Below, in pieces: positions 40,063-54,676 of a stretch of DNA of 64,000 bases. The translations under genes were made by a program, and so were the position numbers. Each line of letters opens with the position of its first letter. Positions within the stretch are counted from its first letter, which is position 1. Source of the DNA: a virus; IMG/VR virus record IMGVR_UViG_3300028800_000060, positions 32,001 to 96,000 of that record; one strand, written 5' to 3'. The notes under the pieces are model-generated. The model worked only from the letters and a program-made list of their open reading frames with translations, did no database searches and was not told where the DNA came from.

Positions 40063-40506
40063 ATGACTCCTTGGATTTACCAGAATAAACCCGTTGAAAT
40101 TCCTCCTGATGGTATGGTTGGGTTTATTTATAACATCACCTGTAAATTAACAGGAAAACAATATATCGGGAAGAAATTTTGTTTTTCGAGGCGCCGCCAT
40201 AAAGTTGCGGGCAGAAAAAATAAGAAGATCATCATTAAGGATTCTGGATGGCAAGAATATTGGAGTTCTTCTGATTTCTTATTAGAAGATATTGCGAAAC
40301 TGGGAAAAGAAAATTTTACCCGAGAGATATTAGAATTTTACCCTACAAAAAAAGAAGTTTCTTTTGCGGAATTAGAAGAACAGATAAAACGTGATGTACT
40401 TAGAGCCAAATTACCCGATGGTTCTAAAGCATACTACAATAGATCTATATTGGGGAAATATTTTTGTCCTCCAGAAAATATACTTGACAATCCTGCCAAA
40501 ACTTGA
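40063..40506 (+). CDS. denA: GIY-YIG endonuclease II-like nuclease
   Basis: GFIY...YIGKK, W..YWSSS, FTREIL, YYN; follows CATAAATA. Confidence 0.8.
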   Translation: MTPWIYQNKPVEIPPDGMVGFIYNITCKLTGKQYIGKKFCFSRRRHKVAGRKNKKIIIKDSGWQEYWSSSDFLLEDIAKLGKENFTREILEFYPTKKEVSFAELEEQIKRDVLRAKLPDGSKAYYNRSILGKYFCPPENILDNPAKT

Positions 40507-52412: not shown

Positions 52413-52922
52413 ATGAATACAATAACCGAACATAATGGTTTAGGTTCTACGGCAATATTTTCATCTGATAAAATTTATCGTTATTTTCTTTCCAGAAAAA
52501 CTGGTATACCTGGTAATAAAAAACTCATATGGATAATGCTTAATCCTTCCACAGCGGATGCTTTTAAATTAGATCCTACGGTTATACGTTGTTTTGTTCG
52601 TAGTAAAAGGCATTCGGCCAATGAAATGATTATCTTAAACCTATTCGGGTTTAGATCTCCATATCCCAAAGACCTTTACACAATTGAAGATCCCATAGGT
52701 CCCGATAATGACGAAATAATTGCATCTTCCTTACAAGGAAATAATGTTACATTAGTTTGTGCGTGGGGCAGTCATAAACTAGTACATGAACGCAGCCTTG
52801 AGCTTTGGAGTCGTTTGGTTGATATCTCCAAATATTGTCTGGGCACAACAAAGACGGGCCAGCCAAAGCATCCGCTTCATGTAGCTTATGAAGATGATTT
52901 AATTCCCTTTGACATCTTCTAA
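52413..52922 (+). CDS. DUF1643-family protein
   Basis: YRYFL, IMLNPSTAD, DPT, NLF, AWG, PKHPL. Confidence 0.9.
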   Translation: MNTITEHNGLGSTAIFSSDKIYRYFLSRKTGIPGNKKLIWIMLNPSTADAFKLDPTVIRCFVRSKRHSANEMIILNLFGFRSPYPKDLYTIEDPIGPDNDEIIASSLQGNNVTLVCAWGSHKLVHERSLELWSRLVDISKYCLGTTKTGQPKHPLHVAYEDDLIPFDIF

Positions 52923-52937
52923 ATAATGTTGTATACT
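52909..52937 (+). promoter_or_regulatory. Sigma70-type promoter of rnh
   Basis: TTGACA-17 bp-TATACT. Confidence 0.8.
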
Positions 52938-52956: not shown

Positions 52957-53541
52957 ATGGTACTTATAGATTTTAGCCAGGTTATGATTAGTAATCTGTG
53001 CGTGCTTCCGATGAAACAATTGGAAGAAAAAGAAACAAACGAATTGCCGGATCTTCGTCATTCTGTTATTCCTGGAATTCCTTCAGAAAAAAAAGATGAA
53101 ATTAACGAAGATTTATTGAGACATATGGTACTCAATAGTCTCCGATTTTATAATACTAAATTCGGAATAAAATACGGCCGGTTGGTGATTTGCTGTGATA
53201 GTCGCCATTATTGGCGAAAAGATGTATTCAAATATTATAAGGCGGGAAGAAAAAAGACCAGAGATAAATCTCCTTTAAATTGGAATTTAATTTTTGAAAC
53301 TCTCAATAAACTCCAAGATGAACTTGTAGAATACTTTCCCTATCAGGTTATTAATGTTAATGGTGCTGAAGCTGATGATTTAATCGGTGTGGTGGCAAAA
53401 CGAGAAAAAAAGAATGGTCCGGTTTTGATAATATCAAACGATAAAGATTTTATCCAACTATTAGATAAAAATGTTTCTCTATATCGGAATATATCCAAAG
53501 AATTATGGATTTTTGATAACAGTCCATCCATTACAGTTTAA
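52957..53541 (+). CDS. rnh: T4 RNase H (5'-3' exonuclease), N-terminal part of split gene
   Basis: LIDFSQ, YWR, YKAGRK, EADD, SNDKDFIQL. Confidence 0.9.
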   Translation: MVLIDFSQVMISNLCVLPMKQLEEKETNELPDLRHSVIPGIPSEKKDEINEDLLRHMVLNSLRFYNTKFGIKYGRLVICCDSRHYWRKDVFKYYKAGRKKTRDKSPLNWNLIFETLNKLQDELVEYFPYQVINVNGAEADDLIGVVAKREKKNGPVLIISNDKDFIQLLDKNVSLYRNISKELWIFDNSPSITV

Positions 53542-53715
53542 ACGTTTTTGCGTGACTTTTCTAGCTTTAGAATTTGGAGGTAGTATTGGCCCTAAATTTG
53601 CATTTTTGTAAATTGTTGGAAAAGCCAATTGGTGTGTCTCACAAAAAGAAACAAGCATGCCGCAAAATTCAAAAATATTTCCGGAAATATCTATAAGGAC
53701 AAAGATTTTGAACAA
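53503..53715 (-). mobile_element. Relic of homing-endonuclease C-terminal DNA-binding domain inserted antisense in rnh
   Basis: Minus-strand frame KIFVLIDISGNIFEF...FCETHQL...NGWTV* resembles C-terminal modules of phage GIY-YIG/HNH endonucleases. Confidence 0.6.
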
Positions 53716-54105
53716 ATGGACTATAAGATTGTAAAACTTACAAAGAAACAAGTACACGAAAAACTCAGAGAACATATTATGCTCGGAGACCACAGCGATG
53801 GAATACCCAATTTCAAATCTCCGGATGATGCCTTTGTTTCTGGAACTCGTCAAACATCAATCCGGAAGAGTGATTTAGAACGTTGGGTAAAAGAAACTAA
53901 ACCGGAAAATTTTTGTGATAGTACGATGCTACGAGGATACCGGAGAAATCAAAAATTGATTGATCTGGATTTTATTCCTCAAGAAATACAAAATGCTATT
54001 GTGGAAGCATGGGATAAACCTTTCAGTGAATCGCGAAAGAAATTGTGGGATTATTTTGTAAAGTATAAGTTAGCTACATTAGCGGATCATTTAGGAGAAT
54101 TCTGA
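53716..54105 (+). CDS. rnh: T4 RNase H, C-terminal part of split gene
   Basis: EHIMLGDHSDGIPN, RQ, RNQKLIDLDFIP; start uncertain (frame open from 53629). Confidence 0.85.
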   Translation: MDYKIVKLTKKQVHEKLREHIMLGDHSDGIPNFKSPDDAFVSGTRQTSIRKSDLERWVKETKPENFCDSTMLRGYRRNQKLIDLDFIPQEIQNAIVEAWDKPFSESRKKLWDYFVKYKLATLADHLGEF

Positions 54106-54244: not shown

Positions 54245-54676
54245 ATGAAATCTGTAGGAGAATTAATGAACATAAAAATTATTCCAGAAATTCTGGATGA
54301 AGTTGCAGCTTGTACCACGGAAGAAGAAGTGAGAAAAGTTCTATTTAAGAACCAATCTCCCGCAATTAAGAAAATGTTTGAATTGGTTTTTAGACCAGAA
54401 CACACATTTACTATTAAAGAACTTCCAAAATATAAACAAGATCCTGGGCCAATAGGTTTGAGCCCAAATTCACTATACGTAGAATTACGGAGATTCTATG
54501 TACTAGAGGATACCAAAGTTATTCCAGAAAAAAAGAAATTGGAAATACTTACTCAAATTCTCGAATCTATCCATCCCACTGAGGCCGAACTTGTCGGGAA
54601 AATTATCAGAAAAGATTTGGGTATTCCACTTCTAACTAAAGAAGTAATTAATTCCGTATATCCAGGTTTGGTATAA
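54245..54676 (+). CDS. Conserved T4-like phage protein (DUF6433-like)
   Basis: LPKY, SLYVELRRFY, QILESIHPTEA. Confidence 0.75.
   Translation: MKSVGELMNIKIIPEILDEVAACTTEEEVRKVLFKNQSPAIKKMFELVFRPEHTFTIKELPKYKQDPGPIGLSPNSLYVELRRFYVLEDTKVIPEKKKLEILTQILESIHPTEAELVGKIIRKDLGIPLLTKEVINSVYPGLV

Follow-up and report, generated by a model that had tools for sequence, protein, structure and literature searches.

Three endonuclease-associated split genes, nrdA, 39/60, and 43, are listed for T4-like phages in a review (PMC2988022). In Aeromonas phage Aeh1 the ribonucleotide reductase gene is arranged as nrdA-a/mobE/nrdA-b, and the split enzyme is active, as that review summarizes the work (Friedrich et al. 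2007 PNAS, cited in PMC2988022). The T4 topoisomerase genes 39 and 60 are separated by mobA, and gene 43 of Aeromonas phages occurs as 43A and 43B, with a seg-like insert in phage 25 and only a short untranslated spacer in 44RR (PMC2988022). We describe here a split rnh gene that is apparently the fourth case of "genes-in-pieces" in T4-like phages and the first for rnh, as no earlier report of a split rnh was found in full-text searches of the literature.

The gene lies in a window of 64,000 nucleotides, which comprises bases 32001 to 96000 of a metagenome-assembled viral contig of 175.7 kb (IMG/VR record IMGVR_UViG_3300028800_000060) judged to be 98% complete. T4-type RNase H is a 5'-3' exonuclease and flap endonuclease (FEN) that removes Okazaki primers. 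A first-pass annotation of the window had proposed that its RNase H gene is split in two by an antisense relic of a homing endonuclease gene. The features of the locus, in window coordinates, are as follows.

52909-52937, plus strand: sigma-70-like promoter, TTGACA-17-TATACT, 11 of 12 positions, a consensus match only; just upstream of the N-piece
52957-53541, plus strand: rnh N-piece open reading frame (ORF), 194 aa; residues 1-182 are the 5'-3' exonuclease N domain (PF02739)
53503-53538, plus strand: N-piece tail, residues 183-194, LWIFDNSPSITV, encoded by the strand antisense to the endonuclease relic
53503-53718, minus strand: by homology, relic of a GIY-YIG (Seg-like) homing endonuclease; last ~70 codons, C-terminal DNA-binding module
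53521-53527, plus strand: AGUCCAU, candidate translational-coupling helix arm in the N-piece tail; pairs with AUGGACU (53716-53722)
53542-53715, no strand: spacer between the rnh ORFs, 174 nt, noncoding; 5 nt in the sister phage
53675-53690, no strand: perfect 16-nt palindrome ATATTTCCGGAAATAT, inside the relic and 26 nt upstream of the C-piece ATG
53716-54105, plus strand: rnh C-piece ORF, 129 aa; T4 RNase H C-terminal domain (PF09293) with two active-site Asp residues (GDHSDG)

Both pieces were recognized in Pfam. The N-piece matched PF02739 with an E value of 3.6e-21 (76 bits against a cut-off of 34.3), and the C-piece matched PF09293 with an E value of 1.1e-16 (61.8 bits; cut-off of 25). 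Their best protein matches were the rnh products of T4-like cyanophages and of Pelagibacter and Methylophilales myophages, at 45 to 47% identity. No further FEN gene with PF02739 or PF09293 was found in the 98%-complete genome, and the split rnh is thus the only one. The N-piece ORF ends in ...NVSLYRNISKE, followed by LWIFDNSPSITV and TAA (53539-53541). The C-piece frame is open from 53596, and its product begins at the conserved ATG 53716 with MDYKIVKLTKKQVHEKLREHIMLGD. The two ORFs are in the same frame, with in-frame stops between them at 53539 (TAA), 53581 (TAG), and 53593 (TAA). Directly upstream of rnh, at 52413-52922 (plus strand), lies a DUF1643 gene (E value of 2e-33) that is absent at the syntenic site in an intact-rnh relative (L011). 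The gene downstream of rnh, at 54245-54676 (plus strand), has a weak DUF6433 match under the Pfam cut-off, and a frame resembling it is also found 3' of the C-piece in the sister phage described below (L015).

Joining the two parts was predicted in the first-pass annotation to restore a contiguous T4 RNase H, and the alignments bore this out. In a phmmer comparison with solved structures, N-piece residues 45 to 180 aligned to T4 RNase H residues 34 to 174 (E value of 3e-25) and C-piece residues 14 to 129 aligned to residues 186 to 305 (1tfr; E value of 5e-7), placing N-piece residue 180 at T4 174 and C-piece residue 14 at T4 186. Ungapped extension brings N-piece E182 to T4 K176 and C-piece I5 to T4 W177 with no residue lost, and the join of NISKE with IVKL therefore gives a contiguous protein. 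The break position is the boundary between the Pfam domains PF02739 and PF09293 (T4 residues 176/177). Since E182 and I5 are adjacent in T4 numbering, the foreign DNA is 53503-53727 (225 nt), which comprises the 12-codon tail LWIFDNSPSITV, the stop codon, the 174-nt spacer, and the first four C-piece codons, MDYK (53716-53727), a leader without a counterpart in intact rnh.

The catalytic carboxylates are distributed over both pieces. Those of the N-piece are D5, D81, D140 (D140/141), D162, and D164, and those of the C-piece are D278 and D281 (read-through numbering), in GDHSDG. They are the equivalents of the seven metal-binding carboxylates of T4 RNase H, D19, D71, D132, D155, D157, D197, and D200. 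The active-site acidic residues had been described as intact in both halves, in agreement with our finding that all seven carboxylate columns are invariant or nearly so among 61 homologues. An AlphaFold model was computed for the read-through protein, with the stops entered as Q and with an alignment of intact homologues. Both halves were modeled at a pLDDT of >90 in the T4 RNase H fold, the insert was disordered (pLDDT of <50), and the model matched 2ihn and 1tfr in Foldseek with target-normalized TM scores of 0.78 to 0.82. Because the alignment of intact homologues drives the packing, the model shows compatibility of the two halves and is no proof of their assembly. The N-piece also has a variable insertion of 20 to 45 residues after the first helix (residues 15-50; window 52957-53100), which is present in the split clade and its nearest intact relatives and missing from cyanophage and T4 RNase H; its residues 28-43 were modeled as disordered (pLDDT of <50).

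With five of the seven catalytic carboxylates in the N-piece, the pieces could in principle work without reassembly, the N-piece as a minimal nuclease and the C-piece in a function of its own, for example, the binding of DNA or of the single-strand-binding protein. The purifying selection reported below would suit such an arrangement as well, as it shows that each half is useful and not that they bind each other. However, the Asp pair of GDHSDG is strictly kept in the C-piece, which makes little sense unless it sits at the active site, and the packing of the halves in the AlphaFold model is that of T4 RNase H, though here again the intact-homologue alignment drives the result. We consider separate roles unlikely. 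Reassembly of the two chains would be favored because the metal ligands of the C-piece are strictly retained.

The strand opposite the insert accounts for its origin. Positions 53506-53718 of the minus strand form an open frame of 71 codons, and its native stop is the reverse complement of 53503-53505, at the first base past the end of rnh homology. The earlier observation that the insert starts exactly at the stop codon of a minus-strand, endonuclease-like C-terminal fragment was therefore correct. Nothing was found for the minus-strand ORFs at the locus in Pfam or PHROGs, and the homology was seen only by tblastn and exhaustive phmmer searches. In the tblastn search against phage genomes, the relic matched annotated GIY-YIG homing endonucleases of Ackermannviridae phages with an E value of 2e-4 and 39% identity over 66 residues. 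The matching protein of Klebsiella phage Menlow has 230 aa and an N-terminal GIY-YIG domain, and the relic aligns to its residues 162-228. The phmmer search of 1.84 billion proteins gave 20 matches at an E value of <=1e-3, the best at 5.7e-15. Ten of the matches were scanned with Pfam; seven had a GIY-YIG-type catalytic domain (GIY-YIG, LEM-3, or SegE type), two had NUMOD3 only, and one had DUF7028 only, these Pfam matches being mostly under the curated cut-offs. The relic is 35 to 48% identical over ~65 residues to the C-terminal module of the family, reaching the extreme C-terminus. In single-module members of 210 to 218 aa, the last ~65 residues align to the relic, and the end motif LNCxGWTV is common to the relic and P0131.

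The minus-strand ORF had no Pfam match to a GIY-YIG catalytic domain, and the minus strand upstream of the relic is merely the antisense of the C-piece, indicating a relic and not a working endonuclease. The antisense homing-endonuclease relic of the first-pass annotation is thereby confirmed at the level of homology; the frame is the C-terminal DNA-binding module of a Seg-like endonuclease, its catalytic part deleted. No closer relatives and no intact copy of the endonuclease were found in IMG/VR, and the JGI metagenomes yielded only the sister phage. A word-indexed search found no longer homologues of the relic. Genome-wide, a single ORF, at 40063-40506 (plus strand, 147 aa), had a match to a GIY-YIG catalytic domain; it is without the C-terminal DNA-binding module and bears no resemblance to the rnh relic. 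The palindrome at 53675-53690 could be due to chance, a protein-binding site, or a weak hairpin.

Two other origins of the spacer were considered and rejected. A repeated mobile or regulatory cassette was excluded by its single occurrence, with no second copy elsewhere in the genome. A decayed duplicate of rnh was suggested by a near-duplicate of the motif DKDFxQ on both sides of the insert. The repeat is there (DKDFEQ, in frame just before MDYK), but it is a weak signal; a 5/6 match to the hexapeptide arises in 1 to 5% of shuffled spacers, the rnh hidden Markov model scored <=0 bits on all six spacer frames, and blastn gave only noise. The spacer DNA is already accounted for by the relic on the opposite strand.

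The split is not confined to one assembly. Three contigs carry the N-piece protein. The window belongs to a metagenome-assembled viral contig, and a chimeric join or other assembly or sequencing artifact, which the earlier annotation had itself raised, would mimic a split gene. However, a separate 16.7-kb ENA contig, independently assembled, has identical DNA across the whole locus, including the junction, and the third contig is identical as far as its end, inside the spacer. The nearest N-piece relative (P0002, 207 aa, 64 to 69% identity) is from a different phage, referred to here as the sister phage (about 70% aa identity), in which rnh is also split. The locus of this phage (P0002/L008/L015) is present in four contigs from different samples, mutually 100% identical. 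An artifact can be dismissed with near certainty.

In the sister phage, the N ORF ends in ...KELWVFDDSPTIAI-TAA, and five bases on, an ATG opens the reading frame MDYKTVKLTK... of its C-piece (P0122). This protein has the same length (129 aa) and MDYK start as the C-piece of the window, with 71% identity, and it is in a different frame from the N ORF. The insert is 56 nt in length, compared to 225 nt in the window. Comparison with relatives, as the first-pass annotation had proposed, also identified contiguous rnh genes, e.g., P0003. In a maximum-likelihood tree, the two split genes were sisters (support of 100/99), nested among intact genes of 285 to 313 aa, indicating that the split had one origin and was then inherited. 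A 122-aa stand-alone C domain (P0123) was rejected as a second split lineage, as it results from an internal start within an intact 287-aa gene. Another protein, P0060 (159 aa; 12 contigs of up to 217 kb, ENA), is an rnh N-domain fragment that ends in ...VKKIFTYVNDRPTDGIGKFF, with neither the C domain nor the initial ~45 residues. It may come from a further rnh that was interrupted, in another lineage of phages; no close relative of it was found in IMG/VR.

Relaxed selection on the halves, as expected of a simple pseudogene, was not observed. The dN/dS ratio between the window and the sister phage (Nei-Gojobori) was 0.167 for the N-piece (dS of 1.4) and 0.159 for the C-piece (dS of 1.1), values from one pairwise comparison of two lineages with synonymous sites near saturation. 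On this codon comparison, both halves are under purifying selection. Together, the shared split, the omega of ~0.16, and the intact residues indicate that both pieces have long been functional after the break. The rnh gene is physically interrupted, and T4 rnh is not strictly essential, so that the insertion might have inactivated it while a host nuclease or another phage nuclease substitutes. Such a dead gene is very improbable, as both halves are open and constrained at a dS of >1 between two lineages with an inherited split, none of the catalytic residues has been lost, and the genome has no other FEN gene.

A heterodimer, bypassing, and splicing had all been offered as ways to obtain a functional enzyme, and the comparison with the sister phage favors the first. 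Rejoining of the pieces into a single chain by intron splicing, by ribosomal bypassing as in T4 gene 60, or by a frameshift could draw on the length of the 225-nt insert, which is a multiple of three, on the shared frame of the ORFs in the window, and on a long-range helix that draws the end of the N-piece ORF near the C-piece AUG. In the sister phage, however, the insert of 56 nt is too short for a group I or group II intron, the ORFs are in different frames so that the same bypass cannot fit, and a matched pair of take-off and landing codons is not conserved. The insert of the window had been described as having no recognizable group I core, and likewise we found no group I intron or other Rfam family at an E value of <=10 except noise. 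The fold of the insert RNA is ordinary, no better than that of shuffled sequences (z of -0.4), and the open endonuclease relic on the opposite strand already explains the insert. We judge rejoining to be very improbable and favor separately made chains.

The promoter at 52909-52937 likely drives both rnh pieces, which would most likely be cotranscribed from it and translated separately. The C-piece ATG is 174 nt from the N-piece stop and has no well-placed Shine-Dalgarno (SD) motif. The absence had been noted before, but it carries little weight, because an SD-like motif at the proper spacing is present for only 16 of the 63 long ORFs in the window and the N-piece is also without one. The AGUCCAU in the N-piece tail pairs with the AUGGACU at the C-piece start with a probability of 0.73 to 0.88 in partition-function folding. 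The sister phage equivalent, AGUCCA/UGGAUU, has a probability of ~0.5 to 0.57 and spans a 21-nt loop that holds the stop codon. Such a helix is typical of translational coupling, in which the second start is freed by ribosomes as they complete the first ORF. By masking the C-piece start codon, the mRNA helix may thus link the synthesis of the two chains, though the helices are short and A/U rich and the global fold is ordinary. A second long-range helix (53472-78 with 53744-50) was rejected as an A/U-rich coincidence, as it involves nonhomologous codons in the sister phage.

The history of the insert can be tentatively reconstructed from the two phages. A free-standing GIY-YIG endonuclease gene would have invaded an intact ancestral rnh of the T4 type, antisense to it and at the point where the nuclease N domain meets the C-terminal domain (T4 residues 176/177). 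The upstream frame would then have ended after 12 foreign codons, the antisense of the endonuclease C-terminus, and the insertion would have left or created an ATG (MDYK) ahead of the downstream part; the pieces have presumably been kept as separate genes since. The endonuclease would subsequently have decayed by deletion, with loss of the catalytic part and retention of the last ~70 codons in the window phage. The sister phage is without the 169 nt between TTTAAAC (53537-43) and TTTGAAC (53706-12), a pattern suggestive of microhomology-mediated deletion from a relic like that of the window. This further deletion in the sister lineage would have left 13 codons and a 5-nt gap. The simplest order that we infer is insertion, loss of the catalytic part, and near-total loss in the sister lineage.

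The pattern of divergence near the break hints at a more complicated history, as it fits a simple two-step order of deletions poorly. Over the last 33 codons of the N ORF, 3 of 20 synonymous sites differ between the phages, compared to 71 of 96 in the rest (Fisher p of 1.2e-6), and the 21 rnh codons before the tail have unusually few synonymous changes. The 12-codon tail (53503-53538, compared with L008 901-936) has five differences, all at the first codon position of the rnh strand (p of ~0.004 if positions are random). They are nonsynonymous for rnh and synonymous (wobble) for the antisense endonuclease, whose peptide LNCNGWTVIKNP is identical in both phages. One possible reading is that selection on the endonuclease outlasted the separation of the lineages, so that it decayed independently in each. 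The low-divergence stretch could also be a coconversion tract from homing or exchange between lineages, or the mRNA could be constrained at the nucleotide level.

Taken as a whole, the locus is likely explained by an rnh gene split by a homing endonuclease gene (HEG) that has since decayed, with the two chains kept separately and reassembling into one nuclease. Within this explanation, we infer that the pieces are translated separately, that the chains reassemble, that the enzyme is active, and that the deletions took place in the order given. RNase H of this phage probably functions as a pair of separate chains, given that the endonuclease has decayed while both halves were kept by selection. 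The chains would reassemble noncovalently, with the second metal site using Asp from the C-chain. The 12-residue tail of the N-chain and the leader of the C-chain may act as strands that zip the chains together. A more specific proposal, in which a two-chain FEN has its active site across two polypeptides and its break fixed after HEG decay, together with the zipping strands and the coupled translation, is tentative, and we would give it somewhat less than an even chance.

The locus provides a time series, from intact relatives to a phage with a 70-codon relic to a sister phage with the break and almost no invader. It shows that a selfish insertion can permanently alter the architecture of a gene. 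It also presents a natural split site in the FEN fold, at a domain boundary and with a metal site that would be shared by the chains, which could guide the engineering of split nucleases. Compared to T4 RNase H itself (1tfr, 2ihn), the two-domain fold, the catalytic carboxylates, and the T4-like neighboring genes are alike, but the single 305-aa chain of T4 is here broken at ~176/177, with a 12-aa foreign tail and a 4-aa leader.

The parallel with the mobE-split nrdA and the mobA-associated 39/60 genes drawn in the first-pass annotation is supported by the relic and by the boundary at its stop codon. As in Aeh1 nrdA, a free-standing HEG is found inside an essential gene of nucleotide or DNA metabolism, leaving two ORFs whose products would have to reassemble, with active-site residues on both chains. 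Aeh1, however, has a split ribonucleotide reductase with an intact, HNH-type MobE, whereas in the present case rnh is split and an antisense endonuclease of the GIY-YIG type has been reduced to the C-terminal module. The activity of the split enzyme has been demonstrated for Aeh1, whereas that of the split rnh is a prediction. Similar to T4 39/60, in which the split is fixed and functional, a gene that is contiguous in relatives is present as two, separated by an endonuclease-derived insert. In contrast to T4 gene 60, which bypasses a 50-nt gap, there is no conserved sign of bypassing at rnh. The gene 43 case is similar in that the break holds either an endonuclease-related insert or a short spacer, comparable to the spacers of 174 nt in the window and 5 nt in the sister phage, and in that the endonuclease is of the seg/GIY-YIG kind. 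It differs in its target, and at rnh the direction of change is readable, since the long form appears to have given rise to the short one by a microhomology-flanked deletion.
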